The notes: generated from the sequence alone by a model not told the origin. Shown: positions 1 to 33,618, numbered from the stretch's first letter. The stretch is 36,512 nt of DNA from Acidobacteriota bacterium (GCA_021731095.1 JAKFYA010000236.1:1-36512); one strand, 5' to 3'. Translations and numbers: made by a program.

Positions 1-2
1 GG

Positions 3-1010
3 GAGGCCGAGAGCAACCGCCAGGTCTACGAGTCACTCCTGCAGCGCGAGAAGGAACTCCGCGTCGTCAGTAACAGCCGTGCCAACAACGTTCGGCTCCT
101 CGACCGGGCGCAGGTTCCTGGTGGGCCGTTCACGCCTGACATTCCCCGCGCGTGGATGATGGCGATGCTGTTCGGTCTCGGCCTCGGCGCTGCGGCCGCA
201 TTCGCCATCGACTATCTGGACGATACGGTCAAGACACCGGAAGACGTGACCTGGCGACTGAAGCTGGGGTTCCTTGGCCTCGTTCCCAAGGTACGGGGTG
301 ACAGACACCCGTTGTTGTCAGGCCCGGTGCCCCACGACTTCGGCGAATCTTTCAGAGCACTGCGCACGGCCCTCGTGATGAGCAGTCCTGGCCGCGGCAC
401 GCGAGTCATTGCCGTCACCAGCACGCAGCCGCTCGAGGGCAAGACCACGACGGCCGCCAACCTGGCCCTGGCGCTGGCGATCGGCGGTTCCCGGGTGCTG
501 CTGATCGATGCTGACATGCGCCGGCCAAGCCTGCACAAGGCCCTGCGCATGCCCAACGACAAGGGCCTGTCGCACCTCCTGACCGGCCAGGCGAAGATGC
601 GCGAGGTGGTCCACCGCTCCTCGGACCCGAACCTGCTGGTCATCACCGCGGGCGCCACCCCGCCCAATCCGTCGGAGCTGCTCGCCTCGGACGGCATGCG
701 CGGGTTCATCCAGCAGTTGTCGGTTGGTCCCTTCGACTGGGTGATCATCGACACGCCACCGGTGCTGGCCGTCACGGATTCGGTGATCCTGGCACCACTG
801 GTCAACAGCATGATCTACGTCATCGGCTCCGAGATGACACGCTGGAGACTCGCCGAGCGTGCACTGGCCACGCTTCAGGGTGGCAACCCCAAGTCGATCA
901 ATGCGGTCCTGAACCGGGTGGACTTCGATCGCAACCGCTATTACTACACCCGGTACTACGGCCAGAACTTCAAGAGCTACTACGCTGAGAGCAAGTCGGC
1001 GGCAAGCTAG
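3..1010 (+). CDS. wzc: Polysaccharide co-polymerase / BY-kinase (Wzc/GumC-CapB type), 5'-truncated by the window edge
   Basis: Frame is open from nt 3 (EAESNRQVYESLLQREKEL...) through a TM helix. Walker A STQPLEGKTT, A' LLIDADMRRP, Walker B VIIDTPP, C-terminal Tyr cluster RYYYTRYYGQNFKSYY. Confidence 0.93.
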   Translation, partial: EAESNRQVYESLLQREKELRVVSNSRANNVRLLDRAQVPGGPFTPDIPRAWMMAMLFGLGLGAAAAFAIDYLDDTVKTPEDVTWRLKLGFLGLVPKVRGDRHPLLSGPVPHDFGESFRALRTALVMSSPGRGTRVIAVTSTQPLEGKTTTAANLALALAIGGSRVLLIDADMRRPSLHKALRMPNDKGLSHLLTGQAKMREVVHRSSDPNLLVITAGATPPNPSELLASDGMRGFIQQLSVGPFDWVIIDTPPVLAVTDSVILAPLVNSMIYVIGSEMTRWRLAERALATLQGGNPKSINAVLNRVDFDRNRYYYTRYYGQNFKSYYAESKSAAS

Positions 1011-1050
1011 TTCGCGCAGCCTGACCCTCAGGGCGTCCCTGGCCGCCGGC

Positions 1051-2394
1051 GTGCCGATTCTGGCACTGGCCGCGCTGGGTGGTGCGTACTCCTCCTCGGT
1101 GCTCCCCCTCCTGGCGGCGGCCGCTGTCCTCTTCTTCGCAGGCGGCGGTGCCATCGCTTCCACCCGGGAGACCCGCCTCCTCGACGTCGCCCTCGTGCTG
1201 CTGGTTGTGGCCATGGGCCTGCAGATCCTTCCCCTCCCCTGGTCGTTCATCTCGTCGCTTTCGCCTCGCACGTTCGAGGTCATGGCCTCGCTGACGATGC
1301 TTGATCCGTCAGCCCCGGGTACGCTGAGCATCCGACCCGCCGTCAGTCGCGAGACCCTGATCTCGGCACTCTCTGTGGTGCTGGTGTTCTGGGGAGCGCG
1401 TGGGGTCTTTGACAACGGTGGCCTGCGGCCGGCGGTCAGGCTGCTGTCCTGGGCCGGCCTGGTCGCCGCGCTGGTCGGTCTGGCCCAGCGCGCCACCTCG
1501 CCCATGTTGCTGCTCTGGACCTGGAAGCCGCTGGACCCTGGCGGCAGACCATTCGGCCCATTCGTCAACAGGAATCACTTCGCCTTCTGGTTGCTGCTGG
1601 CGGGAGCTGTGGCGGCGGGCGCCGCCATTTCCCACATCCACGCGCATGGCCTGCTGCGTCGGCGCGCGCTGCGCGACCGGTTCGTGGACCTGCTCGCCGA
1701 CGGTACGGGCGTGATGCTCCTGGGGTCGGCCGCGCTCATGTGGCTGACACTGATTGCCTCAACCTCCAGGGGCGCCATTCTCGGCATGGCCGTGACCTGC
1801 CTGATTGCGCTGGTCATGGCGGGCCGGCGCATCCATTCACGCGCGGCCTTCCGGACCATGATCGTCCTGGTCGTGGCCCTGCTGTCCTGGGGGGTCTGGG
1901 CCAACATTCAGGCGCTGGCCAGCCGGCTGGATCTGAACAGTGGAGACGTCCCGCGCGTTGCCGTCTGGACAGACACCCTGCCGGTCATCTCGGCATTCGC
2001 AGTGACAGGAACTGGCGCCGGCACCTTCGCCGACGCGATGGTCCGCTTCCAGCAACACGAACGTCGCGTGCTGTTCAGCGAGGCTCAGAGCGAGTATCTG
2101 CAGTTGATGGCAGAAGGCGGGCTGCTGCTGGCAGTTCCGGTGCTGGTCGCCCTGCTGGCCTGGTTGCGGCTGTCTCTGATGCGCCTGAAAGCCAGCAGTC
2201 CCGGCTCGACCTGGATCAGACTGGGCGCGCTGGCAGGGCTGTCTGGAGCCGCCGTGCAGTGCCTCTGGGATTCGGCGCTGCGCATGCCGGCCAACGCGAT
2301 GCTGGTGGCCCTGCTCGCGGCCATCGCCGTCCACCAGCGCACGGATGGCGCCGGTTCAGCTGAGGGAAACGGGCGCGGCCCCGAACTCCACTGA
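1051..2394 (+). CDS. O-antigen ligase (Wzy_C/WaaL-like) family membrane protein
   Basis: Many hydrophobic helices; motifs GPFVNRNHFA, STSRGAILG, R..VW, GTGAGTF, AQSEYLQLMAEGG. Exact start uncertain. Confidence 0.85.
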   Translation: MPILALAALGGAYSSSVLPLLAAAAVLFFAGGGAIASTRETRLLDVALVLLVVAMGLQILPLPWSFISSLSPRTFEVMASLTMLDPSAPGTLSIRPAVSRETLISALSVVLVFWGARGVFDNGGLRPAVRLLSWAGLVAALVGLAQRATSPMLLLWTWKPLDPGGRPFGPFVNRNHFAFWLLLAGAVAAGAAISHIHAHGLLRRRALRDRFVDLLADGTGVMLLGSAALMWLTLIASTSRGAILGMAVTCLIALVMAGRRIHSRAAFRTMIVLVVALLSWGVWANIQALASRLDLNSGDVPRVAVWTDTLPVISAFAVTGTGAGTFADAMVRFQQHERRVLFSEAQSEYLQLMAEGGLLLAVPVLVALLAWLRLSLMRLKASSPGSTWIRLGALAGLSGAAVQCLWDSALRMPANAMLVALLAAIAVHQRTDGAGSAEGNGRGPELH

Positions 2395-3816
2395 GGCACA
2401 GGCCTGATAGAAGTCTGCCGGGATGCCGCGCGCCGGGCAGAACCGGTCCAGGAACCACGTCACCCGCTCGGCCAGCGCCGCTCCGGCTGGCCATGTCGGC
2501 ACCTGCTCCAGCCACGCGTCAAACACCTCTGACGGCCGTACGCCCTTCTCGCGACAGAGCATCCGGAAGGTCTTGCGATCGCCGATCTCCCGGAGGGCCG
2601 CTTCCAGTCTGAACCCATAGGCCACCTCATCTGGCGACATGGACAGATGGGACTCCACGAAGTAGGGCGGCTCGTGACTGAAACGCAGTCCCATCGCCTC
2701 CGCCTTGCGCCAGAGCTCGGTGCCTGGCAGGACCATCAGGGGAAACACGGCCAGTTCTGGCGGGTCCAGCGTCACGGCAAAGTCGAGCGAGCGGTGGAAC
2801 GAGGCGACGGTCTCTCCTGGAAGTCCATAGATCAGCTGGAGTTCGAAGGCGAGGCCATGCGCCTTCAGGAAGCCGATGCCATCGAGAAACTTCTGCATCT
2901 TCAGGCGGCGTTCGACCGTCGCCAGCACGTCCGCGTCCGTCGTCTGCAGGCCGACTTCCAGAAACGACACGTTGGCCTCGCGCATCAGGGCGGCAAGTTC
3001 GTCATCGATGAACTCGGCCCACACCTCCGCATGCACGGCAATGCGGCGGGGGTTGTGCGCGGCAATGAGCCGGCAAATCGCCTTCGCCCGGTCGGCGTAG
3101 AGATTGAACACCGGGTCCATGAGGTACAGCTCGTCGATATCGCGTTGCAGCCAGAACAGGATCTCGCGCTCCACGCGCGCCAGATCGAACCGCCGGTTCC
3201 GGACCGACAGGTCCTTGTTGTAGAAGCAGAAGTTGCAGCGGAACACGCATCCGCGTTGCGTCTCGATGCACACCACGCGACCAGGCCGGTCAGCATAGGC
3301 GTCGGTATGCGGGGACGGCAGCTCGTTGATGTCCCGCAGGAGTGGGGCCTCAGCATTCTCGATGATGCGGTCGGCCTGGCGATACGCGATGCCAGCCACC
3401 TCGTCGAGTGTGCGTCCGTCCCGCGCGCAGGCCACGACCTCCGCGAACGGCAGCTCGCCCTCACTGCACACCACCACGTCGACGAACGGGTTCGCGGTGA
3501 GCACGGCGGCCGCCACGGGTCCCACCTCAGGCCCGCCAAGGACCAGCAGCACATCGGGCCGAGCCGCCCGGATCAATCTGGCCGCGGCCATCAAGGTCCG
3601 CACATTCCAGACATAGCAGGACAGGCCCACCACGGCCGGCCCGGTAGACAGGATGCGGGCAGCGATGACCTCAGGTGCCGCCTCCTGGTCGAACTCCGCC
3701 AGGTCAATCTCACTGAGGGCATGCCCCGCTCGCTCCACGAGATAGGCCCTGAGGTACAGCAGCGCCAGCGGTATGAAGGACGGGTTCTTGTGAACGGTCG
3801 CCAGGCAGATCTTCAC
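2356..3816 (-). CDS. Cobalamin (B12)-binding radical SAM enzyme, candidate class B C-methyltransferase (486 aa)
   Basis: N-terminal B12-binding domain (PLALLYL, VVGLSCYVWN, LGGPEV, EGE), CxxxCxxC in TQRGCVFRCNFC, and IYGLPGET. GTG start at 3816 overlaps the upstream TGA (GTGA), so the ORF-track start at 3939 is probably too long. Confidence 0.9.
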   Translation of the reverse strand: MKICLATVHKNPSFIPLALLYLRAYLVERAGHALSEIDLAEFDQEAAPEVIAARILSTGPAVVGLSCYVWNVRTLMAAARLIRAARPDVLLVLGGPEVGPVAAAVLTANPFVDVVVCSEGELPFAEVVACARDGRTLDEVAGIAYRQADRIIENAEAPLLRDINELPSPHTDAYADRPGRVVCIETQRGCVFRCNFCFYNKDLSVRNRRFDLARVEREILFWLQRDIDELYLMDPVFNLYADRAKAICRLIAAHNPRRIAVHAEVWAEFIDDELAALMREANVSFLEVGLQTTDADVLATVERRLKMQKFLDGIGFLKAHGLAFELQLIYGLPGETVASFHRSLDFAVTLDPPELAVFPLMVLPGTELWRKAEAMGLRFSHEPPYFVESHLSMSPDEVAYGFRLEAALREIGDRKTFRMLCREKGVRPSEVFDAWLEQVPTWPAGAALAERVTWFLDRFCPARGIPADFYQACASVEFGAAPVSLS

Positions 3817-4796
3817 AGGCCGTTTCCCTCGAGACCGATCCCGTGCGCGGACGGCTCGGCTCCCCAGAAGGTGGACTGGTCCGTGGCCGCATGGCGAAGG
3901 CCACCCTGGGCATCCTCGATGCTGACCCGCCACCGCCAATGGATGCTGTCAAACCCGGTCATCTGCAGGCGGACGACATCCCCTGTCCCGACCGGGACAG
4001 CCGCAGGTAGCGGAAAGAAACCCTGCCGGTACTGCGTGCTGTTGTCAGACGGGCTGTTGCCGATGACGATGCCGTCTTCAAGGGTCGCCGAGAACCAGAT
4101 AGCCACCCCGTGCAACGAGCCGGCCCGTTCCATCGCCCACCGCACCTCCGCGTCGAATCCGTACCGGGCAAGCGCGTCGAGCCTGAATGTGGCCACCGCC
4201 ACAGGGCCGGCGAGCGACTCCGCCGGTGCCAACCAGACGGGATACCAGTTGTGGGTAGCCATGCCGCGGAAGCAGGACATGTCAACGCCTTCTCGCGGCG
4301 CATCCCAGCAGGTCACCGCGTCCGCATGCAGGCGCGCGGACTCGACCGGCGCTGCGTGGAGAACCACCAGGTCCGGCATGACCCGCCCGCCCGGGTTGAG
4401 AAAGCGCGTCACGGCGTCGCTGACGCACCGGAGGCCGTCCTTCTGAAGTCCGCAACAGTCGTACGTGTCCGTGACGATAAGGTCCACAGGCTCTGGTAGT
4501 GTGACCTGATCGGACGCCCCCTGGACCAGCACGACACGGTCTGCCACACCGTTCGCCTCGGCCAGCCGACGCACGAGGCCTGCCATGGGATGCGCCTCGA
4601 CCGCATAGACACGCCTGGCGCCTGCGCGCGCCGCCAGGACCGACAACACGCCACTCCCCGCCCCAAGGTCGAGCACGACCATGCCAGGCACGACAGCACT
4701 GGCCAGGGCTGTCGCGTAGCGCGTCAGTCGCTCACCGGTGCCGGCGAGGAGAAACCGCTGCTGCTGGAGAAACTCCGCCGACTCGGGGAATTGCAT
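3813..4796 (-). CDS. SAM-dependent methyltransferase with protein arginine methyltransferase (PRMT)-like architecture
   Basis: Motif I VVLDLGAGSGVLS, RVYAVEA, EPVDLIVTD, RFLNPGG, then a PRMT beta-barrel-like region LHGVAIWFSATL...SPSDNSTQYRQ at the THW-loop position. Confidence 0.85.
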   Translation of the reverse strand: MQFPESAEFLQQQRFLLAGTGERLTRYATALASAVVPGMVVLDLGAGSGVLSVLAARAGARRVYAVEAHPMAGLVRRLAEANGVADRVVLVQGASDQVTLPEPVDLIVTDTYDCCGLQKDGLRCVSDAVTRFLNPGGRVMPDLVVLHAAPVESARLHADAVTCWDAPREGVDMSCFRGMATHNWYPVWLAPAESLAGPVAVATFRLDALARYGFDAEVRWAMERAGSLHGVAIWFSATLEDGIVIGNSPSDNSTQYRQGFFPLPAAVPVGTGDVVRLQMTGFDSIHWRWRVSIEDAQGGLRHAATDQSTFWGAEPSAHGIGLEGNGL

Positions 4797-4808
4797 GGTG
4801 GCGAGGTC

Positions 4809-5435
4809 CTACAGGCCGTCGCGAAGGATGTCGAGAAAGGCGGGCTCGGACCGGAACCACCCTACGAAGGCCAGTTTCTCGACGGCGCCCGCGATGGGCG
4901 TGACCTGATGCTCAAGGGACTCATCGATACGGAACAGGAGTGCATCTCCTTCCCCGGTGTTGGCCACGTCATCAAGCACGGATCCAGACATCGCACTTCG
5001 CAGGCGGAACACGCCGCCCTCGTACGGGTGGTCTCCCAGATTGATGCTCATGCCGATCAAGCGGTGGTCCACGGCATCGTTGTGCCAGGACACATGGTGC
5101 GCGCCGCCCGGCAACATCCGGTACACCCGTCCCGTGAAGCAGCCAATGGCGCCGCAACCGGTGAGGTTCTGGATGCCGGCATAGACGACAGGGTCGTTCA
5201 CGAGAAAATGCAGGAGACTCACGGTGCCGTCGGCCTCGAGACACTGCTCGGTTCCGAGCCCCTCATGGTCCCGCTCGAGGAAGGTCCCCTGGTCCAGTCG
5301 CTGACGTATCGTCAGGCACAAGTCTGGCGACAGCACACCAGGTACCACCGCGCAGTTCGTGCGGGCAAACTGGTCGCGAACGCTGGACAGCTCATCAACA
5401 GGCCAGAACAGCCGAGACGTCAACGGCCCGGTCAT
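4809..5435 (-). CDS. Fe(II)/2-oxoglutarate oxygenase, prolyl-4-hydroxylase-like family, copy 2 (208 aa)
   Basis: WHND (HxD), INL...YEGG.F, GDALLF, EHQV (distal His), KLAFVGWF. ATG at 5435 is 2 nt after the upstream stop. Confidence 0.85.
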   Translation of the reverse strand: MTGPLTSRLFWPVDELSSVRDQFARTNCAVVPGVLSPDLCLTIRQRLDQGTFLERDHEGLGTEQCLEADGTVSLLHFLVNDPVVYAGIQNLTGCGAIGCFTGRVYRMLPGGAHHVSWHNDAVDHRLIGMSINLGDHPYEGGVFRLRSAMSGSVLDDVANTGEGDALLFRIDESLEHQVTPIAGAVEKLAFVGWFRSEPAFLDILRDGL

Positions 5436-5437
5436 TG

Positions 5438-6109
5438 TCAAACCCCCGCCCTGGCGCGAGCCAGGCCGACTTCCTCGGACCCAAACTCTTCGAGCAGTGA
5501 GACGAGAGACAGATCCGATACGAACCACCCTGCGAAGGTGGTACGCGGGACAGTGCCTGTGACCTCCGTGGCCCGATGCTCAAGGCCAGAGGCAATGCGG
5601 AACAGGACCGCATCTCCAAGGCCGGTATTCGCGATATCACACAGCAATCGCTGTCGCGGATCATCCAACAACTGGAAGTGCCCGCCTTCGTAGATGTCGA
5701 CGCTGAGGTTGAGGCTCACGCCAATGCGGCGCCCCTGCACGTTGTCCGAGTGCCACGAATCAAAGTGTCCGGCTCCCGGGACAAACCTGAACACACGCCC
5801 ACGAAAGCCTGACAGCGGCTCACAGCCGGTCAGTTCCTCGACGAGACGCAGCAACGCCGGGTCGTTGAAGGCGAAGTGCAGCAGGCTCAGGGCCGGATTC
5901 GGCATCATGGCGTGATCCGCCGCGATGTCGTGATGCTTCTCGTCAAAGAACGCCGACTCCGTCACATGCCTGAGCGCAAACGCCAACAGGTCGTCAGACA
6001 GCACCTGGCGAAGGTGCACGTAACGGTGTTCCGAAAACTGTGCTGACAGCGTGCGTCGTTCAGAGTCCGGCAACGGCGCAGCCAGGCCGTGTGGTGTCAG
6101 TTGCAGCAT
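5438..6109 (-). CDS. Fe(II)/2-oxoglutarate oxygenase, prolyl-4-hydroxylase-like family, copy 1 (223 aa)
   Basis: WHSD, LNL...YEGGHF, GDAVLF, EHRA, RTTFAGWF. ATG at 6109 overlaps the end of the kinase gene; a TTG at 6118 is an alternative start. Confidence 0.87.
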   Translation of the reverse strand: MLQLTPHGLAAPLPDSERRTLSAQFSEHRYVHLRQVLSDDLLAFALRHVTESAFFDEKHHDIAADHAMMPNPALSLLHFAFNDPALLRLVEELTGCEPLSGFRGRVFRFVPGAGHFDSWHSDNVQGRRIGVSLNLSVDIYEGGHFQLLDDPRQRLLCDIANTGLGDAVLFRIASGLEHRATEVTGTVPRTTFAGWFVSDLSLVSLLEEFGSEEVGLARARAGV

Positions 6110-7116
6110 GGGGGGCAAGTAGACAGGTCGGACAGGACTGCGTCACGCACCGTCGCAAGGAGGGGAAGCCGTCGAGGATAGGACAACCGCCTGACCGGTA
6201 TGCTCCCCGCCAGGTTCGTGACAAAGGCAAACTGCCGGGACAGACGTTCTGCGGTGGCCACGCGCCCATTGAAGGTATTGGCAATCAGCGCCAGGCACGC
6301 CTGGCGCAATGGCAAGTGGCGGATCCGAACCTGCGCATGGGCTTGCGCACGAGCCTCTGAACGACGCGCTTCGCCGATGACATAAATGGCCCGAAGCGGT
6401 ACAGCCGTCAGCGCCTGCTCACCATCCACCATGGGCATGGCCAGCTTGGGGGCCAGCAAGGGCATCGTGATGCCGGCCGGACGCCCCTGTCGCAATCGGG
6501 TCGCCATGCGGCGCATGAGCTTGATGCGTGGTGGCCCCAGGTGGGCCATCAGGGCTGTACCCTGGCGGGTGACGACCAGCTGGTCATCAGTGACCAGGTG
6601 ATACCCCGCCTGCACGAACGCAGCAGCCAGGCTGGATTTGCCGCGCCCTGATGGACCGAGGAACGCCACGCCCTGCCCGTTGATGGACACGACGCTTGCA
6701 TGAAGCGGTTCGAGACCCTGCTGGACCAAGGCGTAAGAGAGTGCGGGTCCGAGCATAAGGGCTTCGAACAGTTCCAGACCTGTCCGTCCCCCACGACGCC
6801 CAATGATGCGCGCGCCATCCCCGGTGACCAGGAACTCGATGGAGCGCCCCCAACGGAGATAGGACCCGCCATCATCAAGGGCGGCCCGTTCGAACCAGGA
6901 GGAGTGACGGGTGCGCGGCAGGAGGGCCGCAGAGGCAAACAGGCCATCATGGACAGATGTCGTCCCATCTTCAAGGGAGACGTCCCAGGACGGGGCGTAT
7001 GCGGATGACACGGGAGCAAACGGCAGGCGCCACGCGCTCGACAGGCGAACTGAAAAGAGATCGTATAGGTAGCGAGGCCCCTGGCCTGTGCCTCCCACCG
7101 CTGCGACCGGGGACAT
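6097..7116 (-). CDS. HPr kinase-like P-loop kinase, putative lasso-peptide kinase
   Basis: LHASVV...AFLGPSGRGKSSLAA...LVTDD, the His / Walker A / DD signature of HPrK-like kinases. ATG overlaps the precursor stop (TGATG). Confidence 0.88.
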   Translation of the reverse strand: MSPVAAVGGTGQGPRYLYDLFSVRLSSAWRLPFAPVSSAYAPSWDVSLEDGTTSVHDGLFASAALLPRTRHSSWFERAALDDGGSYLRWGRSIEFLVTGDGARIIGRRGGRTGLELFEALMLGPALSYALVQQGLEPLHASVVSINGQGVAFLGPSGRGKSSLAAAFVQAGYHLVTDDQLVVTRQGTALMAHLGPPRIKLMRRMATRLRQGRPAGITMPLLAPKLAMPMVDGEQALTAVPLRAIYVIGEARRSEARAQAHAQVRIRHLPLRQACLALIANTFNGRVATAERLSRQFAFVTNLAGSIPVRRLSYPRRLPLLATVRDAVLSDLSTCPPCCN

Positions 7117-7280
7117 CAGGACTTGGTGGTCTTCCGGATCCCGTCGCTCTTCTTGCCGCCCTTTGCCAGCGCCAGATGGCGCAGGTCTCCGTAGACCGTC
7201 AGCTTCGGCGTCCTGTAGGCCTTGCGCGACGTCTCGCCCTGGTCTCTCGATTCTGAATCAGACGATGACACGTTCTTCAT
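7116..7280 (-). CDS. Lasso peptide precursor, 54 aa: MKNVSSSDSESRDQGETSRKAYRTPKLTVYGDLRHLALAKGGKKSDGIRKTTKS
   Basis: Manually translated (below the 60-aa ORF cutoff). Leader motif YRTPKLTVYGDL fits YxxPxLxxxG. ATG overlaps the cyclase stop (ATGA), its TGA overlaps the kinase ATG, and AGGAG lies 8 nt upstream. It fills the gap exactly. Confidence 0.92.
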   Translation of the reverse strand: MKNVSSSDSESRDQGETSRKAYRTPKLTVYGDLRHLALAKGGKKSDGIRKTTKS

Positions 7281-9217
7281 GACCTGCTCTCCTGCCTGCT
7301 AGGTGAACCGCGCCCGACTGTCGACATCGGACCAAAGAACTGCTGCAACCAGACTTCCAGCGCCAGCACATCCGTGAGTCCCCGGCTCGCGTCGAACGTG
7401 TCGTTCGCCAGTGCCGCATGGGCCTCACGCAGGGCCCGGTCCGCTCCGGCCCGGACATAGCCTCGCTGCACCGCTTCGCCCGTCGCCGCCAGCCGCGAGA
7501 CGATCCGATTATAGTCGCGGGACACACCGTCATTCACCAGCGACGTGAAGCTGACTTTGGTGCGCCTGGACGCAATCGCCTCTGGCAGCACACCACGCAG
7601 ACTTTCCCGGAGCAGCGCCTTGGGCACCCCGCCAGCGCACAGCACGTCACCGGGAATAGCCATCAGGAAGGCGACCAGGTCCCGGTCCAGGAACGGGAAC
7701 GCGTGCTCGAGTCCTTCGATAGCCCCGGCCTTGTTGTGCCACTCCAGGCAGAACACGGCGTACCGGGACCTGGCCTCCCGGTAGAGACTGGCGCCGTGGG
7801 CCGTGAATCCGGCCGGCACCCGGACAGGCGGGCGCTCGGCGCTCCGGCGAAACGCGTCGGTGTACCAGCCTCGGACATCGCGCCGTGCCGCCAGACGCTG
7901 ACGCGCGCGGCGAAGGCGGCGCAACACCGCCATCGGCAGGTGTCGCACGACCAGCCCTCTCAGGAGTCGCGTGGTGAAGTAGGAGGCATCCGTGACGCTC
8001 AGCCACTCACCAAAGCCCCGCGCCTGCCGCCAGGCCTCGCGCCAGGCGCCCTGTTCGACCAGGTCCAGCAGATAACCATCATCTGCCAGGAACTGGTCGC
8101 CCCAGTCGCCCGACAGCAACACCCGGACGCCCTTGGACCTCACAAACCGGTTGAACGCCTGGTCGCTGGTCCACTCCATATCGAGGGATGGCACCTCGAC
8201 GTGCCAGACCCCCCGGTCCACCTCATCGACCATGCCCAACTGCGGATGCGGGAAGCGATGGGACTGGAGGCCGGTAGCGACCTCGACCGCTCTGAGAAAC
8301 GCTTCCTCGTCAGCCTTCGACCCTGGTGGCGGCGTATAGGTGACGCCAACCGGGGACTGGGCATGGCCGCGCCCCTGGTGGCGCAGGTGCTCCGCCACGC
8401 AGAAGATCGAGGACGAGTCCACGCCACCACTGAGCGACACGCCGACCGGCGCTGCGCTGCGCAGGCGACGCGACACGGCCTGCTCAAAATGTTCGCGAAA
8501 GGCCTCGGCGTACGCGCCGGGCGACGCAAGCCTGATGCGTGCGCCGGGATCGAAGTCCCAATACCGGCGTGTCCGTGCCTCGCGGCCGCGCACCACGACC
8601 TGATGGCCTGGCAACACGCTGAAGACCTGGTCGAACACTGTCAGGCCCTGCGTGTCCTCGGACATCAGGGCATTGAAGTAGAAGTCTGCGATGCATGCGT
8701 CGCACGGTGCGACGTGCGCCTCCGGGTGTGCCAGCAGGGCTTTCACTTCGGTGCCGAACAGTAGGTGCGTCGGCCCCTGCTGGTAGTAGAGGGGTCGTAC
8801 TCCCATGGCATCGCGAGCAAGGCAGAGCATGCGTGTCGCGGTCTGGTAGGCCGCAAGGGCGAAGTCGCCCAGGAGGTAGTCGGGAGCCGCCTCGCCCCAT
8901 CGCGCGTAGGCCGACAGCGCCAGGTTCTCGTCTGGCGTGTCCGCGCGAAGATGGTGGTCGCCCAGCCTCGCGAGCAGGTCGTCACGGTTGTCGAGTCGGC
9001 CATCAAAGGCGATGACCCAGCGATCGTCCCGGCAGACCTGGGCCAACGCTGGCGCCTCAGCGTCCCCGGGAGCCCAGTCGCGTACGGCACACCCGAACGA
9101 CGCATCCCGGAAATGCCGTTCGACGCCACGGTGAGCCATGGCCGCAGACATCGCCCGCAGTTCCGGTGCCCCGGCCAGACGTTCGTCGAAATTGAGGACG
9201 CCGCAGATGCCGCTCAC
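7277..9217 (-). CDS. Lasso cyclase (C protein), asparagine synthetase-like macrolactam synthetase (646 aa)
   Basis: Starts GTG-SGICG, with Ser in place of the catalytic Cys of AsnB MCGI. Also DGRLDNR, GDFA, ARDAMGVRPLYY, ATP-binding SLSGGVDSS, SGDWGDQ, FPFLDRDLV, KALLR. The ORF-track start at 9373 would overlap the B1 gene. Confidence 0.9.
   Translation of the reverse strand: MSGICGVLNFDERLAGAPELRAMSAAMAHRGVERHFRDASFGCAVRDWAPGDAEAPALAQVCRDDRWVIAFDGRLDNRDDLLARLGDHHLRADTPDENLALSAYARWGEAAPDYLLGDFALAAYQTATRMLCLARDAMGVRPLYYQQGPTHLLFGTEVKALLAHPEAHVAPCDACIADFYFNALMSEDTQGLTVFDQVFSVLPGHQVVVRGREARTRRYWDFDPGARIRLASPGAYAEAFREHFEQAVSRRLRSAAPVGVSLSGGVDSSSIFCVAEHLRHQGRGHAQSPVGVTYTPPPGSKADEEAFLRAVEVATGLQSHRFPHPQLGMVDEVDRGVWHVEVPSLDMEWTSDQAFNRFVRSKGVRVLLSGDWGDQFLADDGYLLDLVEQGAWREAWRQARGFGEWLSVTDASYFTTRLLRGLVVRHLPMAVLRRLRRARQRLAARRDVRGWYTDAFRRSAERPPVRVPAGFTAHGASLYREARSRYAVFCLEWHNKAGAIEGLEHAFPFLDRDLVAFLMAIPGDVLCAGGVPKALLRESLRGVLPEAIASRRTKVSFTSLVNDGVSRDYNRIVSRLAATGEAVQRGYVRAGADRALREAHAALANDTFDASRGLTDVLALEVWLQQFFGPMSTVGRGSPSRQESRS
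7289..7293 (-). promoter_or_regulatory. Shine-Dalgarno site (AGGAG) for the precursor gene
   Basis: Minus strand reads gcAGGAGagcaggtcATG, with an 8-nt spacer. Confidence 0.7.
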
Positions 9218-9233
9218 AGGTAGACTGATCCTA
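9218..9233. promoter_or_regulatory. Possible bidirectional, leaderless-type promoter between cyclase and B1
   Basis: Only 15 nt separate the divergent start codons. TAGACT (9221-9226, +) lies 6 nt before ATG 9233; TAGGAT (9233-9228, -) lies 10 nt before GTG 9217. Both fit TAnnnT. Confidence 0.35.
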
Positions 9234-9532
9234 TGACGAAAGTAACCCTGTCCGATGCGGTCAGGCCGGGGGCCAACGTCCTGTTCCGCGAGCTTGAAGG
9301 CGAAGGCATTCTCTTGAGCCTCGAGAGCGGAAAGTACTTCGGCCTCGACGCGGTCGGCACGCGGATCTGGCAACTGCTCGGCGCCGGTCCGTCACTCACC
9401 GGCGTCTGCGAGACGCTCGCCGCGGAATTCGATGTGGAGCGCGCCACCATCGAGGCCGACCTGCTGGCCCTGGTCGCGGAACTCTCGTCCCACGGACTCG
9501 TGCTGGTGGCGGAGCACGCCCCGTCGGCATGA
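9233..9532 (+). CDS. PqqD-family RiPP recognition element (lasso B1 protein)
   Basis: 99 aa; RELEGEGILLSLESGKYFGLDAVGTRIWQLL...LAAEFDVE...ADLLALVAELSSHGLV is a typical PqqD/RRE pattern. Confidence 0.93.
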   Translation: MTKVTLSDAVRPGANVLFRELEGEGILLSLESGKYFGLDAVGTRIWQLLGAGPSLTGVCETLAAEFDVERATIEADLLALVAELSSHGLVLVAEHAPSA

Positions 9533-9993
9533 TGGCCACCGGCGAGGCGTGGCTCGAACGCGTCGCCTGGGTTCGACAGGAGTGGCCGCTGATCGGCGAG
9601 GCGATGCTGGCCGCACTGGTGGTGGAGACGGGCCTCCGCGCCACCTCGCATCCCCGCCTGTGGCACTGGGCCGGGGTTGTCCCTCGCGACATGGCCTCCC
9701 GGCCAGACCCGGCGCTGCTCTGGGCCATCCTCCGCGCCAGCTACTGGGCATGCCTGCTGCTGCCGGTGCGTGGAACCTGCCTCCGTGAAAGCCTGGTGGC
9801 CGCGCGCCTGCTGTCGCGCCGCGGTCACCCCGTCACCGTGCAGGTGGGCGTCCGCAAGGCCGGTCCCCGTCTGGACTCCCATGCCTGGCTCGAAGATGGC
9901 GATGGACGCGCGCTCACCGATCCCCTTGCGGGGTACGCCCCTCTGATCGCCGACACGCATGACCGAACAGCTCTGCCGGATCCTGCGCGGTAA
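9529..9993 (+). CDS. Lasso leader peptidase (B2, transglutaminase-like cysteine protease)
   Basis: TCLRESL (catalytic Cys), VQVGV, SHAWLE (His). ATGA overlap with the B1 stop. Confidence 0.92.
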   Translation: MMATGEAWLERVAWVRQEWPLIGEAMLAALVVETGLRATSHPRLWHWAGVVPRDMASRPDPALLWAILRASYWACLLLPVRGTCLRESLVAARLLSRRGHPVTVQVGVRKAGPRLDSHAWLEDGDGRALTDPLAGYAPLIADTHDRTALPDPAR

Positions 9994-11110
9994 CCCGGTC
10001 GACTGGCCACCAGACGCCGCCGGTGCCGAGACCTTGCAGCGGGAGGCCTATGAGCATGGCGTCCATACCCTGGTCGCGGCACGGCTGTCGAATCCGTCGT
10101 ATGCCGACTGCCCGATCTGGGTCCGGCAACCGTTCGCGCGTGAACGCGTGGACGAGGCCGCTGAAGAGCAACTGGTACGCCAGTCGATCCGGTCAGTCAT
10201 CGCCGCGTGCGCCAGTGCGGGCCTGCACCCGCTCATCTTCAAGGGTGCCGCCCTCGCCTTCACCCACTATGACGACCCGAGCGACCGTCCCTATGTGGAT
10301 GTCGACCTTCTCGTCCGACCGGGCGAGGCGCGCCTGGCGGCACAGGTGCTCGAATCGCTGGGCTACCAGGCCGCCGTCAGCGTGACCGGCGCGCTGCTGG
10401 CGGATGCCCCGGATGCGACCACCATCGATCGGTATGCGCCCAGCTCGCAGGTCCCGTTCACGAAGCGTGATGCCCGGGGAACGCCGCTCGAGATCGACCT
10501 GCACTGGCGCCCCACAATTCCCCAGGTGTTTGCCCAGGTGTTCGACCTGGATGCGTTGCACGCCGACTCGGTCGCCGTGCCGGCCCTGGGTCCGCAGGCG
10601 CGCGCGTTTGGACCCGTTCATGCGCTGGTGCTGGCCTGCCTGCATCGCCTCGCCCACCACCACGGCAGCGACCGGCTGATCTGGCTGTACGACCTGCACC
10701 TGCTGGGGTCACGTCTCACGACGGGTCAGGTCACAGCGCTACTCGAACTGGCGCGTGCGCATCAGGTGGCCGGGGTCTGCCTGGATGGACTGACCCTGGC
10801 CAGGCAGGCCTTCCAGAGCCCGTTCCCGGACGCACTCATCGAAGGGCTCCGCGAGGCGGCCGCTGCCAGTGACGAGCCGTCCGCCATGTATCTGCATCAT
10901 CAGGTTCGCCAGATGGACGTGCTGCGCGCAGACCTCGCGGCCCAGCCCAACCTCTCCGCGCGCATCCGCCTGTTGCGCGAACACCTCTTTCCACCGCCTG
11001 CCTATCTGCGCCAGCGTTACGGCGCACGCGCGTCCCTCTGGCTGCCCTGGCTGTATGTCCGGCGTGCGGTGTCCGGTGCACGCCGGTGGATGACCTCGCC
11101 ACGCCCCTGA
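9959..11110 (+). CDS. Nucleotidyltransferase family protein (NTP_transf_5-like)
   Basis: FKGAALA..Y.....R...DVDLLV, EIDLHW, RLIWLYDL. Confidence 0.88.
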   Translation: MTEQLCRILRGNPVDWPPDAAGAETLQREAYEHGVHTLVAARLSNPSYADCPIWVRQPFARERVDEAAEEQLVRQSIRSVIAACASAGLHPLIFKGAALAFTHYDDPSDRPYVDVDLLVRPGEARLAAQVLESLGYQAAVSVTGALLADAPDATTIDRYAPSSQVPFTKRDARGTPLEIDLHWRPTIPQVFAQVFDLDALHADSVAVPALGPQARAFGPVHALVLACLHRLAHHHGSDRLIWLYDLHLLGSRLTTGQVTALLELARAHQVAGVCLDGLTLARQAFQSPFPDALIEGLREAAAASDEPSAMYLHHQVRQMDVLRADLAAQPNLSARIRLLREHLFPPPAYLRQRYGARASLWLPWLYVRRAVSGARRWMTSPRP

Positions 11111-11117
11111 CAACACA

Positions 11118-11166
11118 AAGGGGATGCCGATGGCATCCCCTTCATGACGGCGGCTCTTCAGCCGCC
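11118..11166. terminator. Two tandem hairpins between convergent genes, probable (bidirectional) terminator
   Basis: AAGGGGATGCC-gat-GGCATCCCCTT (11118-11142, perfect 11-bp stem, followed on the - strand by a T-rich tract) and GGCGGCT-cttc-AGCCGCC (11149-11166). Confidence 0.7.
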
Positions 11167-11184
11167 ACATCCCCCGGACCCGCG

Positions 11185-12345
11185 TCAGCTCAGCATGCGC
11201 CTGAAGAGCAGGGTTCGCGCCGGCTGGTGGCGGAACAACGCCAGAATCAGATCCCGATGGCGATTGAAGCGCGCCGTCTGTCGCACGATCGGCATGATGC
11301 CGTTGGTATTCGCCAGCCTGAAGAGGGCATCCATTTCGCCGTCACTGAGCTTCTGCGCCAGCATGCGCAGCGCCAGCTGCGTCCGGAACTCGGGAATCAG
11401 TTCCTTCCGCCAGCCCGCTTCATACACAGACAGGGCGGACGCATCCAGCCGGTCCCGGTGCAGCGCGTCGCGCAACACCTCGGCGGCCATCGCACCCGTC
11501 GTCATGCTGTAGTAGATGCCGCCCCCTGTGGTTGGCTTGACCAGCCCTGCGGCGTCCCCGATGGCGACCACACGATCGGCATAGGTCCGGCGGATCGCCC
11601 CGAGCGGCAACAGTCTGCGGCGCGGCGATGCCGCGATCGTGCCTGCCACGCCCCAGGACGGGCCGATTCTCTCCATCAACCGGCGAAACGGGCCGGCGGC
11701 GTCGCCGTCGCACATCAGGCCGATGCGTACGTGCGGTCCGTCGGGTCGCACCGTCGGCACAGCCCAGGCAAACCCCTGCGGGGCGACATCCAGACCGAAG
11801 TAGACCTCGACCTCGCCACTGCGACCCGCGGGCACTTCCATCTGGGCCGATGAGAGATACACCGACGGCAGACCCATGCCGAGCTGGCGCTGGAAGCTGT
11901 AATTGACCCCGCAGGCGAGCACGACCGCACGTCCCACGACCGGAGCCTGCCCCTCGATCCCGACCTCCACGGAGTGCTCGCCGTTCACCAGGCCCGTGGC
12001 GCGGGCTCCCCGGATGAGGGCGGCACCTGCGGCAACAGCTCTGGTGGCCAGCATCCCGTCGAACCGGACGCGGTCCACCACCACGGCTTCCAGGCGGTCG
12101 GGAGTCCACGAGAGCTCAAGCCCTCCGGGCGAATGAAATCGGACCGCCGGCAAGGGATTGAGCACGGCATCGCGCGGAAGCCCGAGCTCCTCGAACACCT
12201 CATCTCCCAGGATGCCGGTGCAATGCGGAGGCTGGCCTATCTCGGCGTGTTCCTCGAGGACAGCCACATCAAAGCCGTCACGCGCCAGCTTCGCGGCTGC
12301 GTGCAGGCCTCCCGGGCCGCCACCGATGATCACGACATCATGCAT
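11185..12345 (-). CDS. Geranylgeranyl reductase-family FAD-dependent oxidoreductase
   Basis: DVVIIGGGPGG, HCTG, VDRVRFD, GFAWAVP, IGDAAGLVKPTTGGGIYY. Confidence 0.88.
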   Translation of the reverse strand: MHDVVIIGGGPGGLHAAAKLARDGFDVAVLEEHAEIGQPPHCTGILGDEVFEELGLPRDAVLNPLPAVRFHSPGGLELSWTPDRLEAVVVDRVRFDGMLATRAVAAGAALIRGARATGLVNGEHSVEVGIEGQAPVVGRAVVLACGVNYSFQRQLGMGLPSVYLSSAQMEVPAGRSGEVEVYFGLDVAPQGFAWAVPTVRPDGPHVRIGLMCDGDAAGPFRRLMERIGPSWGVAGTIAASPRRRLLPLGAIRRTYADRVVAIGDAAGLVKPTTGGGIYYSMTTGAMAAEVLRDALHRDRLDASALSVYEAGWRKELIPEFRTQLALRMLAQKLSDGEMDALFRLANTNGIMPIVRQTARFNRHRDLILALFRHQPARTLLFRRMLS

Positions 12346-12377
12346 ACGGTGCGGCCATTATATGTGTCCCGTGCCAG

Positions 12378-12977
12378 TCACACCTTCGGCCCCGGGTGTT
12401 CCCATCGGCCACGGGCACTGATCCAGAACGACAGCGCAATGAGACGGACATCCAGCCAGAAGCCGGCACGCCGGCAGTAGAGCGCGTCGAAACGGAACTT
12501 CTGCGGTCGCGGCAGGTCACGCCGCGCATAGACCTGGGCCAACCCGGTCAGCCCCGGACGCACGGCGTGTCGCGCCACGTAGCCGGGAATCTCCTCCAGA
12601 CGCACGAAGCGTCCATCGCCACGTGCCTCGATTTCGCCCACCGCCAGGGGGCGAGGGCCGACGAAGCTCATGTCGCCAATGAAGATGTTCCAGAGCTGAG
12701 GCAGCTCATCAAGCGCCATGGCGCGCAACAGGCGACCCACACGGGTGATGCGCTGGTCATTGGCCACCACCTGCCTGGCAGGTTCGACTGACGCCGCCAC
12801 GAACATCGACCGGAACTTGTAGGCGGTGAATGGCCGTCCGCCACGACCGACTCGCGGCTGGGTGAAGAACACCGGGCCCCCATCCTCCAGCCGGATCGCC
12901 AGGGCGACCAGCAGCCACACCGGTGCGGACAGAACGAGCCCGAGGCCAGACAGACACAGGTCGAACAGGCGTTTCAT
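12378..12977 (-). CDS. Priming sugar transferase (polyprenyl-phosphate phosphoglycosyl transferase, Bac_transf)
   Basis: KRLFDL, GPVFFTQPRVG, KFRSM, LDELPQLWNI..GDMSFVGPRP, RPGLTGLAQV. Confidence 0.93.
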   Translation of the reverse strand: MKRLFDLCLSGLGLVLSAPVWLLVALAIRLEDGGPVFFTQPRVGRGGRPFTAYKFRSMFVAASVEPARQVVANDQRITRVGRLLRAMALDELPQLWNIFIGDMSFVGPRPLAVGEIEARGDGRFVRLEEIPGYVARHAVRPGLTGLAQVYARRDLPRPQKFRFDALYCRRAGFWLDVRLIALSFWISARGRWEHPGPKV

Positions 12978-12987
12978 GGGTTGCCCG

Positions 12988-14202
12988 CTACCGCACGCGT
13001 CCCGCGATCAGTCTGCGAAACAATGACGCGTAGGCTTCAACCTGCCGAGGACGGTCGAACCGCAGCCCCGCCTCTCGTGCTCGCGCCCCCATGGCGCGCA
13101 CCAGGTCTGGCGCGGCACGCAGGTCCCTGATGCGCGTGGCCAGGGCCACGCCGTCGCCCGGTGGCACCACCACGCCGCAGCCGTGTTCGCGGGCCAGCGT
13201 CACCAGTTCGCAGTCGTCCTCGACCGCGGCCACAAACGGCCGACCTGCGGCCAGGATGCTGTAGACCTTGCTCGGCACGATGTAGCCCGCCAGGCCAGGC
13301 CGCAGCGACACCAGGAAGAGATCGGCGGCGGCATACGACAGCGCCATGTCCGCACGCGGTTGATAGGGCAGGAACATCACGTGCGAGAGCCCTCGTGCAG
13401 CGGCCTGCGCCTCAAGCGACGCGCGACGCGCACCATCGCCGACAAACACGAAGCGGATGTCGGGGTCGTCCCGCAACTCGGCCGCCGCATCCAGCACGAC
13501 GTCCAGGTTCTGCGACAGGCCGATATTGCCGGCGTGCATGACCACGAACGCCTGCTGCAGGCCATGGGCGCGTCTGAAGGCGTTGTCCGGCGGACCGGGT
13601 GACAGCGCCGCGCAGTCGGCCCAGTTGTCGATGACGACGATCCGGGACGGCTCGGCGCCTTTGCCCTCCACGAGACGCCGCTTCATCGTGTCGCCAAGCG
13701 CCACGACCGCATCCGCCGTGCGGACCAGGAAGCGTCCGACCTGCTGAAGCACGGCATTGACCGTGGGGCTGCGGAAGTCCTCGAGCAGGACGGCCACTTC
13801 AGGAAAGACGTCCTGGCAGAGAAACACGAACGGCGCCCGCATGCGTCGCGCCGCACACCACCCGGCCAGACCGATGATTGGCGGGTCTGTCATGGCCATC
13901 ACGACATCGGCCCGAGGAACCCGGAGAGCCGCCCACAGCGCAGACACGAAGTACGACAGGTAGTTCATGGCCCGACCGGCAAAGCGGCGCGGGTCATGCA
14001 CGGTGCCGGCGGCACGCACGATTCGCACGCCGTTCCGCACCTCCTCAGCCGGCAGCGGGCCAGCGTGGCGGAGCGGGTACCCAGTGACTACCGTGACCTG
14101 GCAACCGTGGTGTGCCACCAGATCCTCGGCCAGTTCGGTGAGCAGCTGCCCTGTCGCGCCGAAATCCGGCCAGTACGACCGGTTGAAGATGCAGACCTTC
14201 AC
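12988..14202 (-). CDS. GT4 glycosyltransferase (WbuB/WcaI-like)
   Basis: YWPD...TGQLLTELAEDL, QDVFPE, AGNIGLSQNL, VPSKVYSILAAGRP. Confidence 0.9.
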   Translation of the reverse strand: MKVCIFNRSYWPDFGATGQLLTELAEDLVAHHGCQVTVVTGYPLRHAGPLPAEEVRNGVRIVRAAGTVHDPRRFAGRAMNYLSYFVSALWAALRVPRADVVMAMTDPPIIGLAGWCAARRMRAPFVFLCQDVFPEVAVLLEDFRSPTVNAVLQQVGRFLVRTADAVVALGDTMKRRLVEGKGAEPSRIVVIDNWADCAALSPGPPDNAFRRAHGLQQAFVVMHAGNIGLSQNLDVVLDAAAELRDDPDIRFVFVGDGARRASLEAQAAARGLSHVMFLPYQPRADMALSYAAADLFLVSLRPGLAGYIVPSKVYSILAAGRPFVAAVEDDCELVTLAREHGCGVVVPPGDGVALATRIRDLRAAPDLVRAMGARAREAGLRFDRPRQVEAYASLFRRLIAGRVR

Positions 14203-23367: not shown

Positions 23368-23368
23368 G

Positions 23369-26565: not shown

Positions 26566-27281
26566 CACGCCACGGGTTTGCGGCAGCAGATTCCGACCAG
26601 GACCGGAAATTTCGGATCCATGACGTCCAGTTCGGCCGTGGTGAGTTCTTCCGTGGCCAGTCCCATCACGGCCGCTGTCGCGCTCAGGCAGTTGCCATAG
26701 GCGCGTACGGTGACGTTGCAGCCCGGCCAGACCCGCTCCGCCACCACCTGCCAGCCCTCGGCGCTCAGGTGCCAGTAGTCCTTGCCGTCGCCGTTCATCT
26801 GGCCGAGCACCGCTGTCGTGCCCAGGACCACGCCGCCCGGCCGGACCACGCGCAGAGCCTGCCGGAGGCACGCGTCGAGATCCCGAAGGAAGGACAACGT
26901 GTTCGGCAGGATGAAGCAGTCGTAGTGGTCATCGGGAATGATGGTGTCAGCCGTGGCCAGGTCGCAGCACCACGTCGGATGGAACTGCGGCTCGATGTCG
27001 ATGGTGTCGGACCGGCGCACCTGGTGCCCGTAGCGCCGTGTGATGTCACCGACCTGGACCTCCAGCACATCTCCGGTGATGTCGGCGCGATGGGCATCAA
27101 GGAAATGGGCCAGGTAGTACCGGTCGACAGGGGTGCCACGTTCGAAGCCGAAGTACGACGAGAACGGATGGGTCCGTCGCAGGTTGCCCCACCACGGAAT
27201 GGGCAGTCCACGCAGTACGCATCGTGCGCGTGTGGTCCAGCGCGGGCCCAGCCACGTCTTGAGTCTGGCCGTCAGCGGCAT
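26565..27281 (-). CDS. Class I SAM-dependent methyltransferase-like protein, polysaccharide-associated
   Basis: FGFERGTPVDRYY, GDVLEV, YDCFILPNTL, VVRPGGV, DYW, YGN. ATG at 27281. Confidence 0.75.
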   Translation of the reverse strand: MPLTARLKTWLGPRWTTRARCVLRGLPIPWWGNLRRTHPFSSYFGFERGTPVDRYYLAHFLDAHRADITGDVLEVQVGDITRRYGHQVRRSDTIDIEPQFHPTWCCDLATADTIIPDDHYDCFILPNTLSFLRDLDACLRQALRVVRPGGVVLGTTAVLGQMNGDGKDYWHLSAEGWQVVAERVWPGCNVTVRAYGNCLSATAAVMGLATEELTTAELDVMDPKFPVLVGICCRKPVA

Positions 27282-28594: not shown

Positions 28595-28618
28595 GGGGGA
28601 GCCGTGGCCTCCGTCGTC

Positions 28619-30758: not shown

Positions 30759-30762
30759 AGTG

Positions 30763-31638: not shown

Positions 31639-31643
31639 CTGTG

Positions 31644-32831: not shown

Positions 32832-32832
32832 C

Positions 32833-33604: not shown

Positions 33605-33618
33605 CGATAAGGGTCCAT

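Follow-up and report, generated by a model that had tools for sequence, protein, structure and literature searches.

The stretch of DNA considered here, hereafter the window, is 36,512 nucleotides (36.5 kb) long and forms a whole contig of an 81% complete metagenome-assembled genome from an Acidobacteriota soil bacterium (GCA_021731095.1, JAKFYA010000236.1). It carries a lasso peptide biosynthesis cluster set within a polysaccharide locus, and our main subject is the PF14907 nucleotidyltransferase (N) of that cluster and its relation to the surrounding glycan genes. The window was annotated by Pfam and NCBIfam scans covering about 45 open reading frames (ORFs), not every small ORF among them. 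A first-pass annotation, made from the sequence without database searches, had described the lasso genes as lying between wzc/ligase and the end of a glycan operon of about 22 kb, and our map bears this out: the lasso cluster occupies positions 2356-11110, between the genes for Wzc and a Wzy_C-type ligase on one side and a 21.7-kb glycan operon, running from 32903 down to 11185, on the other.

The cluster holds the complete split-B set of lasso genes, namely, precursor (A), cyclase (C), PqqD chaperone (B1), peptidase (B2), kinase (K), and N (Table 1). The minus-strand operon comprises seven genes, C, A, K, two 2-oxoglutarate (2OG)-Fe(II) oxygenases, a methyltransferase resembling protein arginine methyltransferases (PRMT-like), and a B12-binding radical S-adenosylmethionine (SAM) protein, and it converges on the plus-strand genes for Wzc and the Wzy_C protein. 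The plus-strand B1-B2-N operon diverges from C, with N overlapping B2, and the glycan operon, on the minus strand, is convergent with N. Since the divergent start codons of C and B1 lie about 15 bp apart (window 9217-9233), both promoters must sit within neighboring coding sequence; a promoter and terminator scan of 2000-12500 returned no more sites than shuffled sequence. The gene inventory of the first-pass annotation was incomplete in that it overlooked the four minus-strand tailoring genes at 2356-6118 (B12-radical-SAM, PRMT-like, and two 2OG oxygenases). The sequence shows the core lasso genes, four in number, and the tailoring genes to be intact and translationally coupled; the cluster is thus real and intact and belongs to the kinase/nucleotidyltransferase lasso family as a form with heavy tailoring.

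Table 1. Genes of the window, with the matches that identify them
Feature	Position	Strand	Evidence and remarks
Wzc-type co-polymerase/tyrosine autokinase, C-terminal part	3-1010, cut by contig end	+	GNVR and AAA_31; TIGR01007 166.7 bits, over cutoff
Wzy_C/O-antigen-ligase-like membrane protein	1051-2394	+	PF04932, E 4.3e-15; weak TIGR03097 PEP_O_lig_1; ~10 hydrophobic segments
B12-binding radical SAM protein, class-B methyltransferase type	2356-3939, start not refined	-	PF04055 and PF02310; last gene of the lasso operon
PRMT-like SAM methyltransferase	3813-4796, start not refined	-	PRMT_C, PrmA, and Methyltransf_25
2OG-Fe(II) oxygenase, second copy	4809-5528	-	PF13640, E 5.2e-8; homologues in L022, L026, and L067
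2OG-Fe(II) oxygenase, first copy	5438-6118	-	PF13640, E 9.4e-8
HPr-kinase-like peptide kinase (K)	6097-7116	-	PF07475, E 5.4e-9, over cutoff; HprK-related kinase A/B models under cutoff
Lasso precursor (A), 54 amino acids, MKNVSSSDSESRDQGETSRKAYRTPKLTVYGDLRHLALAKGGKKSDGIRKTTKS	7116-7280	-	ORF; NF033528 23.3 bits, E 4.5e-5, under cutoff of 33
Lasso macrolactam cyclase (C)	7277-9373, likely start GTG 9217	-	Asn_synthase PF00733, E 2.4e-46, and GATase_7; ribosome-binding site before GTG
PqqD-type RiPP recognition element (B1)	9233-9532	+	PF05402, E 8.1e-19; lasso PqqD models NF033536 and NF033530 matched under cutoff
Lasso leader peptidase (B2)	9529-9993	+	PF13471, E 6.8e-16; NF033537 62.2 bits, above cutoff of 33
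PF14907 nucleotidyltransferase (N), PsmN family	9959-11110	+	PF14907 120.2 bits, E 1.4e-34, cutoff 31.2
Geranylgeranyl-reductase-family flavoprotein (GGred), last gene of the glycan operon	11185-12345	-	TIGR02032 175.3 bits, cutoff 158.8
Small phosphoglycosyl transferase (PGT, Bac_transf)	12378-12977	-	PF02397, E 4.2e-60
GT4 glycosyltransferase (GT4a)	12988-14202	-	Pfam
Carbamoyltransferase (CarbT)	14199-15944	-	Pfam
Rest of glycan operon: GT4s, Wzy-like polymerase, deacetylase, methyltransferases	within 15938-32903	-	Pfam, NCBIfam
Wzt	28619-29914	-	ABC_tran; 431 amino acids
Wzm	29904-30758	-	ABC2_membrane
Wza	30763-31728	-	Pfam/NCBIfam
EpsL-like outer-membrane protein	31644-32903	-	Pfam/NCBIfam

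Two candidate features of this region were discarded. Insertion as a mobile element was rejected, as the GC content of 0.62 to 0.69 across 1-13000 resembles that of the flanks, no mobility genes turned up, and other genomes have kept the same arrangement. Two plus-strand ORFs (2647-4446 and 4590-5693) are spurious, with out-of-frame, GC-rich-looking translations and no Pfam match, opposite minus-strand ORFs with clear domains; matches labeled 'unk599' and 'unk367' in other loci are antisense echoes of these two and were ignored.

The precursor gene is preceded by a ribosome-binding site, its ATG overlaps the cyclase stop codon (ATGA), and its own stop codon overlaps the kinase start (TGATG), features that mark it as a real gene. 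Its leader carries the YxxPxL motif (Y22-x-x-P25-x-L27). By alignment to a Gemmatimonadales locus (L047; loci from other genomes are designated by L numbers), the leader is predicted to be cut after L38, leaving the last 16 residues (A39-S54) as the core, with a ring spanning A39-D46 (Ala1-Asp8). Leader position -2 is Ala37 and not Thr; Ile, Val, or Ala at this position has been predicted or shown in kinase-type lasso clusters (PMC10368454). The predicted core includes four Ser/Thr residues (S45, T51, T52, and S54), one of them the C-terminal Ser, together with five Lys and one Arg. Our own leader hidden Markov model (HMM), trained on ORFs of this kind, recovered 33 similar ORFs, that of the window included, in 29 loci plus the window, and the core peptides of this precursor family are Gly/Ser/Thr-rich and hydrophilic. 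For the cyclase, the best NCBIfam model was the lasso family NF033535, at 316.7 bits and under its cutoff of 525, and the exopolysaccharide (EPS) amidotransferase model TIGR03108 reached only 139.1.

A subfamily of precursors, mostly from Acidobacteriota loci with N, ends in a conserved Cys-Leu (L012, L016, L018, L036, L049, L055, L067, and L229:6823-6981 on the minus strand, with the L016 precursor ending in Gly-Leu), an ending that hints at a C-terminal Cys modification. The loci of these precursors also have a geranylgeranyl-reductase-family gene.

The translation of K has an intact P-loop followed by an Asp-Asp pair. Homologues of the PRMT-like methyltransferase were found as 25 ORFs among the 80 N loci described below, often in the order K-PRMT-N; because several family cores lack Arg, its target may not be arginine. 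For the B12-radical-SAM protein, the best NCBIfam models were a KedN5-family C-methyltransferase, a PhpK-family P-methyltransferase, and a radical SAM C-methyltransferase of RiPPs (peptides made by the ribosome and modified after translation), all matched under cutoff, and a homologue was present in 1 of the 80 N loci (L022). The PhpK-family match (E 1.2e-31, far under cutoff) is curious in a phosphopeptide cluster.

Residues D114, D116, and D180 of N are invariant in an alignment of 26 homologues. When the AlphaFold model of N (predicted local distance difference test score of 91.4) was used in a VIA-align structure search, residues ~70-283 matched nucleotidyltransferases of the Pol-beta superfamily, among them ANT(2'') (4xje; Z 14.0, root mean square deviation of 3.2 Å, 166 residues aligned) and MenT1 (8an4; Z 14.0). 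The ribitol-phosphate transferase FKRP (6kaj) matched weakly, at Z 8.1, and counts as no more than a lead. A profile search of PDB sequences with N yielded nothing meaningful (best E 0.078), and a Foldseek search with the model gave no match at E <= 0.001. As modeled, N thus has the Pol-beta nucleotidyltransferase fold and is neither a GT-A/GT-B-fold protein nor a LicC-type enzyme. In the LicA/LicC/LicD pathway of phosphocholine decoration, a kinase step and nucleotide activation are followed by transfer of the phospho-substituent to a sugar, and the first-pass annotation had likened K and N to this pathway. The likeness is one of logic and not of homology, given the fold of N and given that no LicC or LicD family match was found among the window ORFs scanned. 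Agreeing with a Pol-beta-type fold of N are the Phyre2 result reported for PsmN, the pseudomycoidin homologue, and its essential DxD pair (PMC6993621).

The genome of the window has a second PF14907 gene on another contig (C10, L082:9437-11200, plus strand), fused to a SAM methyltransferase in a protein of 587 amino acids and adjoining genes for a PEP-CTERM protein, a DegP-like protease, and an LPG_synthase_TM protein. We rejected it as additional support, as no lasso or polysaccharide gene of our panel lies nearby.

With the alignment of 26 homologues as query, one genome per species was scanned, and the best 80 of 264 relatives of N were kept with up to 10 kb per side. These loci were annotated with phmmer and with our own HMMs built from window proteins; the assignments were then checked with Pfam (71 ORFs, 450 nt or longer) and with NCBIfam (52 cyclase-like ORFs, 900 nt or longer), shorter matches being counted as absent. 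At least one core polysaccharide marker (Wzc, Wzy_C ligase, PGT, or Wza) was found in 43 of the 80 N loci, and two or more in 34; the first of these counts was lowered from 46 when the 'Wzc' HMM matches in L072 and L077 proved to be ParA-type ATPases. A lasso-type, RiPP recognition element (RRE), or kinase gene was present in 67/80 loci and a lasso-type cyclase in 36/80 (30 clear and 6 fragmentary), nine further 'cyclase' matches having been set apart as AsnB amidotransferases of the EPS type. Wzc occurred in 19 of the first 50 loci, against 0.46 expected by chance from the density of the GNVR domain (120 matches in 250.8 Mb, the 49 genomes holding these loci), and 17 of the 19 had a GNVR match at E <= 1e-5. 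One locus, L034, is from a genome flagged as unpublished; it adds one lasso locus with EPS markers and two precursors to the counts, and none of our conclusions depends on it.

The N gene is also found on the same strand as genes of either pathway. Within 400 bp on the same strand, N was flanked by a glycan gene in 16/79 loci, by a lasso gene in 23/79, and by both in 2/79. The GGred gene adjoins N on the same strand in seven of the 80 loci. In the PGT-reductase-N operons of L024, L062, and L028, the gap between GGred and N is 3, 12, and 18 bp, respectively; L016 has a methyltransferase gene in between. A single open frame spans N and PGT in L102, L103, and L106, and in L191, L196, and L199 the immediate neighbors of N include GT4a-like genes. 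Among long N homologues, sought in a nonexhaustive search that scored only 8,000 candidates, 3/3 were glycosyltransferase fusions, GT4-N twice and GT2/GT25-N once. In a soil metagenome set fetched with the GT4-N fusion (80 of 319 relatives kept, not dereplicated), PGT-GGred-N followed by a convergent Wzc gene was seen in 16/80 loci, with B1/B2 beyond Wzc in 8 of these 16, sometimes together with PRMT and C. The GGred-PGT-GT4a-CarbT block of the window stands beside lasso genes in L022, L026, L080, and L229, the last of which, from the same family as the window, has on one strand Wzy, GT4c, GT4b, CarbT, GT4a, PGT, and GGred and, after 24 bp, B1, B2, C, A, PRMT, K, and 2OG. As read from these gene orders, the N gene alternates between a lasso operon and a PGT-reductase-N sugar operon, and in at least five phylum-level groups this N clade is linked to glycosyltransferase genes and to genes that prime polysaccharide synthesis.

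GGred was present in 27/80 N loci, regularly paired with the small PGT, and this pairing suggests a partly saturated polyprenyl carrier for the glycan pathway. Of the 80 loci, 18 have N, K, and PqqD and no lasso cyclase or B2 (e.g., L009, L037, L039, L041, L058, and L073); they resemble the linear polyphosphorylated peptide (LPP-like, 'HPr-rel-A') cassettes, and 7 of the 18 lie beside polysaccharide markers.

We also sampled lasso loci independently of N. A B2 search over 400 species of the window's phylum gave a match in 106/401 genomes, the window's own included, and the best-scoring 80 of about 125 matches, annotated in the same way as the N loci, contained N in 35 cases. Core polysaccharide markers were found in 8/35 lasso loci with N (N+) versus 2/45 without (N-), and, with the marker set widened to GT4, CarbT, and Wzy, in 16/35 versus 3/45 (Fisher 0.018 and 5.6e-5, respectively, both ignoring relatedness). 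The glycan tie, as far as gene content tells, is thus specific to N-bearing lasso loci. On a FastTree phylogeny of 109 N sequences (six short ones dropped), an EPS label carried by 51 of the 109 required 24 changes, at least 12 of them forced by well-supported branches, against a mean of 36.4 changes for shuffled labels; 0 of 500 shuffles were as low as 24. The adjacency is therefore clustered and has nevertheless been gained or lost many times, so it is not one inherited accident.

The first-pass annotation had found no peptide ABC exporter, isopeptidase, or immunity gene and had suggested that the peptide could be exported together with the glycan. The absence of the first two stands: no fused exporter of the ABC_membrane type and no S9 peptidase turned up among the ~45 window ORFs scanned, which do not cover all small ORFs. 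But an ATP-binding cassette (ABC) transporter of the glycan type, Wzm/Wzt (28619-30758), is present in the window. Among the 80 N loci, 13 have a fused ABC exporter. The 36 loci with a lasso-type cyclase divide into 23 with EPS markers and no fused exporter, 3 with both, 8 with the exporter only, and 2 with neither (Fisher 2e-4, uncorrected); once the unfused ABC ATPases that adjoin the lasso genes of L021 and L034 are counted, the first two numbers become 21 and 5. This pattern largely follows lineage, 18/18 Acidobacteriota loci having EPS markers and no exporter and the Beta/Gamma loci mostly the reverse. Fused exporters lie inside polysaccharide loci in L047, L048, L065, and L187; the last, from the same family as the window, has its exporter between the ligase gene and N. 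The window's genome encodes at least five fused ABC exporters elsewhere, with 31 to 39% identity to that of L187. Because glycan genes and an ABC exporter are both missing from the neighborhood of 17/35 N+ loci in the B2-centered phylum sample, the absence of an exporter alone is no pointer to export with the glycan.

Several characterized systems come close to the cluster. In pseudomycoidin, PsmK and PsmN together leave on the C-terminal Ser a phospho-(di)hexose that resists phosphatase, in agreement with what the first-pass annotation had cited as established, with PsmN-dependent additions of 162 and 324 Da on the phosphorylated forms and a D134A/D136A mutant that is inactive (PMC6993621). 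This DxD pair is the one found invariant in the N family of the window. The window resembles the psmCAKB1B2ND cluster of Bacillus pseudomycoides in its split-B core, HPr-kinase-like kinase, PF14907 protein, Ser-ending precursor, and DxD motif; it differs in lacking a counterpart of the ABC exporter PsmD, in having two 2OG oxygenases, a PRMT-like methyltransferase, and a B12-radical-SAM protein in addition, in its Acidobacteriota-like Gram-negative origin, and in its position within a polysaccharide locus (PMC6993621). Like the window, the bsf cluster of Bradymonas sediminis is a Gram-negative lasso cluster with K and N and a residue other than Thr at leader position -2 (Ile in bsf, Ala in the window), although it has an ABC exporter, BsfD, and unrelated flanking genes (PMC10368454). 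The bsf kinase needs the RRE and phosphorylates core Ser3, so such kinases need not act on a C-terminal Ser (PMC10368454). In davasins, the glycosyltransferase IgtG puts up to four sugars on a single Ser of a lasso peptide, so that building an oligosaccharide chain on the mature peptide has a precedent; there, the sugar is O linked directly, without a kinase, nucleotidyltransferase, or phosphodiester (PMC11912497).

The co-location of lasso and polysaccharide genes is itself already published for Bacilli, in which paeninodin-like lasso and LPP clusters are embedded in, or often co-localized with, capsular polysaccharide loci (PMC13381572, Nat Commun 2026). The authors suggest that neighboring polysaccharide genes could add peptide modifications and speculate about a role in biofilms, stating that the natural role of lasso peptides of the kinase/nucleotidyltransferase type is unknown; the Bacilli clusters, all from Bacillota, have an MsbA-like exporter, which the window lacks (PMC13381572). 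Cross-phylum statistics, N-PGT operons, GT-N fusions, and a covalent conjugate were not found in the available text of that paper, whose co-occurrence table (Supplementary Data 2) may bear on the frequency of the co-location, nor did the accessible parts of the related literature contain a covalent peptide-polysaccharide conjugate, a link outside Bacillota, N-PGT operons, or GT-N fusions.

Considering these data, we propose that the cluster makes a phospho-glycosylated lasso peptide of the paeninodin/pseudomycoidin type with the help of the sugar enzymes of the locus and is genetically integrated into the exopolysaccharide locus, a reading to which we assign a probability of about one half. 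In this model, B1 would present the precursor, and K would phosphorylate a core Ser/Thr (S45, T51, T52, or S54), while B2 and C would remove the leader and close the eight-residue ring A39-D46. Hydroxyl and methyl groups would be added by the oxygenases, the PRMT-like methyltransferase, and the B12-radical-SAM protein. N would join the phosphate to a sugar through a phosphodiester, in the manner of PsmN, and neighboring glycan enzymes (the GT4a/PGT block) would supply, and probably extend, that sugar; the joining chemistry of peptide and glycan we infer. The product would be a phospho-glycosylated lasso glycopeptide tied to the surface glycan pathway, and not a bare antibiotic, with a sugar that may be small, lipid linked, or polymeric. 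As the same pairing recurs in relatives far above chance, the peptide and sugar pathways probably work together.

Several observations weigh against this proposal. In the B2-centered phylum sample, 27/35 N+ loci have no core marker within ~10 kb and 19/35 have no glycan gene of the panel at all; the link is not a general one, although the cross-genome test proposed in the first-pass annotation turns out positive for the N clade of the window. The three nearest relatives of the window's N (L002, L030, and L215) are labeled non-EPS, two of these loci being short. The 80 N loci were chosen for the similarity of their N to that of the window, and 37 come from Acidobacteriota, so that their counts are not independent; the glycan panel, made from the window's own proteins, may miss unrelated glycan genes and counts any GT4. 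As read from the genomes sampled, the linkage between N and polysaccharide genes is real but not universal. In addition, the authors of the pseudomycoidin study leave open whether PsmN itself transfers the hexose (PMC6993621).

A further point of this kind is transcriptional: with both flanks convergent on it, the lasso unit of the window is not co-transcribed with the glycan genes there and, judging from gene orientation, is bounded by convergent gene ends and has its own transcription. This would suit a lasso peptide that is an independent free product, possibly phosphorylated and methylated, and shares only regulation or ecology with the polysaccharide, be it through co-expression in biofilms, a noncovalent association of the cationic peptide with an acidic matrix, or signaling. 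The five Lys and one Arg of the predicted core and the lability of the adjacency on the N tree fit such a product, as do the characterized relatives (psm, pade, and bsf), all reported as free peptides with ABC exporters in the available texts, and the Bacilli study, which, as far as its accessible text goes, proposes only a possible role in biofilms (PMC13381572). Yet other cores of the family are not cationic, and a merely ecological association leaves unexplained the movement of N between lasso and PGT-GGred operons, the GT-N fusions, and the enrichment of glycan genes beside N+ but not N- lasso loci; we regard it as unlikely. In a further reading, N, and perhaps K, would in this lineage act on the glycan or its lipid carrier and not on the peptide, with the lasso genes as bystanders. 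Seven of the 80 N loci (L007, L010, L040, L054, L066, L070, and L076) do have polysaccharide markers without K, B1, or a lasso cyclase, and N is often paired with PGT and GGred, but the overlap of N with B2 in the window's B1-B2-N operon, the prevalence of lasso-type, RRE, or kinase genes in the N loci (67/80), and the action of PsmN on a peptide (PMC6993621) make this very improbable.

A bolder form of coupling, in line with what the first-pass annotation had suggested, shares all the linkage evidence of the proposed glycopeptide: the phosphopeptide would be joined by a Ser/Thr phosphodiester to a lipid-linked or polymeric polysaccharide, for example, as a chain-end cap, with N as the coupling enzyme beside the priming transferase, and exported through Wzm/Wzt and Wza/Wzc as a surface decoration, with no exporter of its own needed. 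The cotranscription of N with the priming PGT in several genomes, and their single open frame in three, would fit such a conjugate, as would the hydrophilic family cores and the 23 lasso-cyclase loci with EPS markers and no fused exporter. C-terminal extensions of Wzt proteins can recognize glycan chain-end caps, and the window's Wzt has an extension of ~170 residues after its ATPase domain; however, the Pfam domain Wzt_C (PF14524) was undetected in this protein at E <= 0.01. The EPS/exporter pattern, moreover, tracks lineage and weakens when the unfused ATPases of L021 and L034 are counted, the lack of an exporter is common without a glycan context, L187 of the same family does have a fused exporter, and the genome of the window has others that lie elsewhere. 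No peptide bound to polysaccharide in this way was found in the accessible parts of the related literature. We therefore consider the conjugate rather doubtful and continue to prefer the phospho-glycosylated lasso peptide.

Some observations concern the polysaccharide locus itself. Models specific to PEP-CTERM systems (Wzc, Wza, ligase, and EpsL) matched in the window, every one under its cutoff. Another contig of the genome (C7, L083:1510-19114) encodes an exosortase (EpsH), an EpsI/DUF3485 protein, PEP-CTERM proteins, and large tetratricopeptide repeat (TPR) proteins, as well as a sigma-54 activator, a two-component pair, AsnB, and a GT4. With these genes in the genome, the polysaccharide locus of the window may belong to a PEP-CTERM system. 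A role of the Wzy_C gene as a PglL-type O-oligosaccharyltransferase acting on an exported peptide was set aside, as it is not apparent how the peptide would reach the periplasm. At the far end of the glycan operon, a plus-strand ORF (32605-34590), opposite in strand to the operon and situated between the outer-membrane-protein gene and a GT4 gene at 34593-35885, contains a D12-class (Dam-like) DNA adenine methyltransferase domain (E 2.1e-51).

In conclusion, to the published co-location in Bacilli we have added the glycan tie of an N clade, the alternation of N between operons, the GT-N fusions, and the specificity of the tie to N+ lasso loci. Co-location thereby becomes a proposal, in which N would be the coupling enzyme between a phosphopeptide pathway and a sugar pathway. 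Even if a conjugate is not real, the cluster stands out within a known family for its unusually heavy tailoring. If the conjugate is real, lasso peptides would have a structural or surface role as part of a new kind of glycoconjugate, in which a ribosomal knotted peptide would decorate a bacterial surface polysaccharide as a structural element or cap its chain ends.

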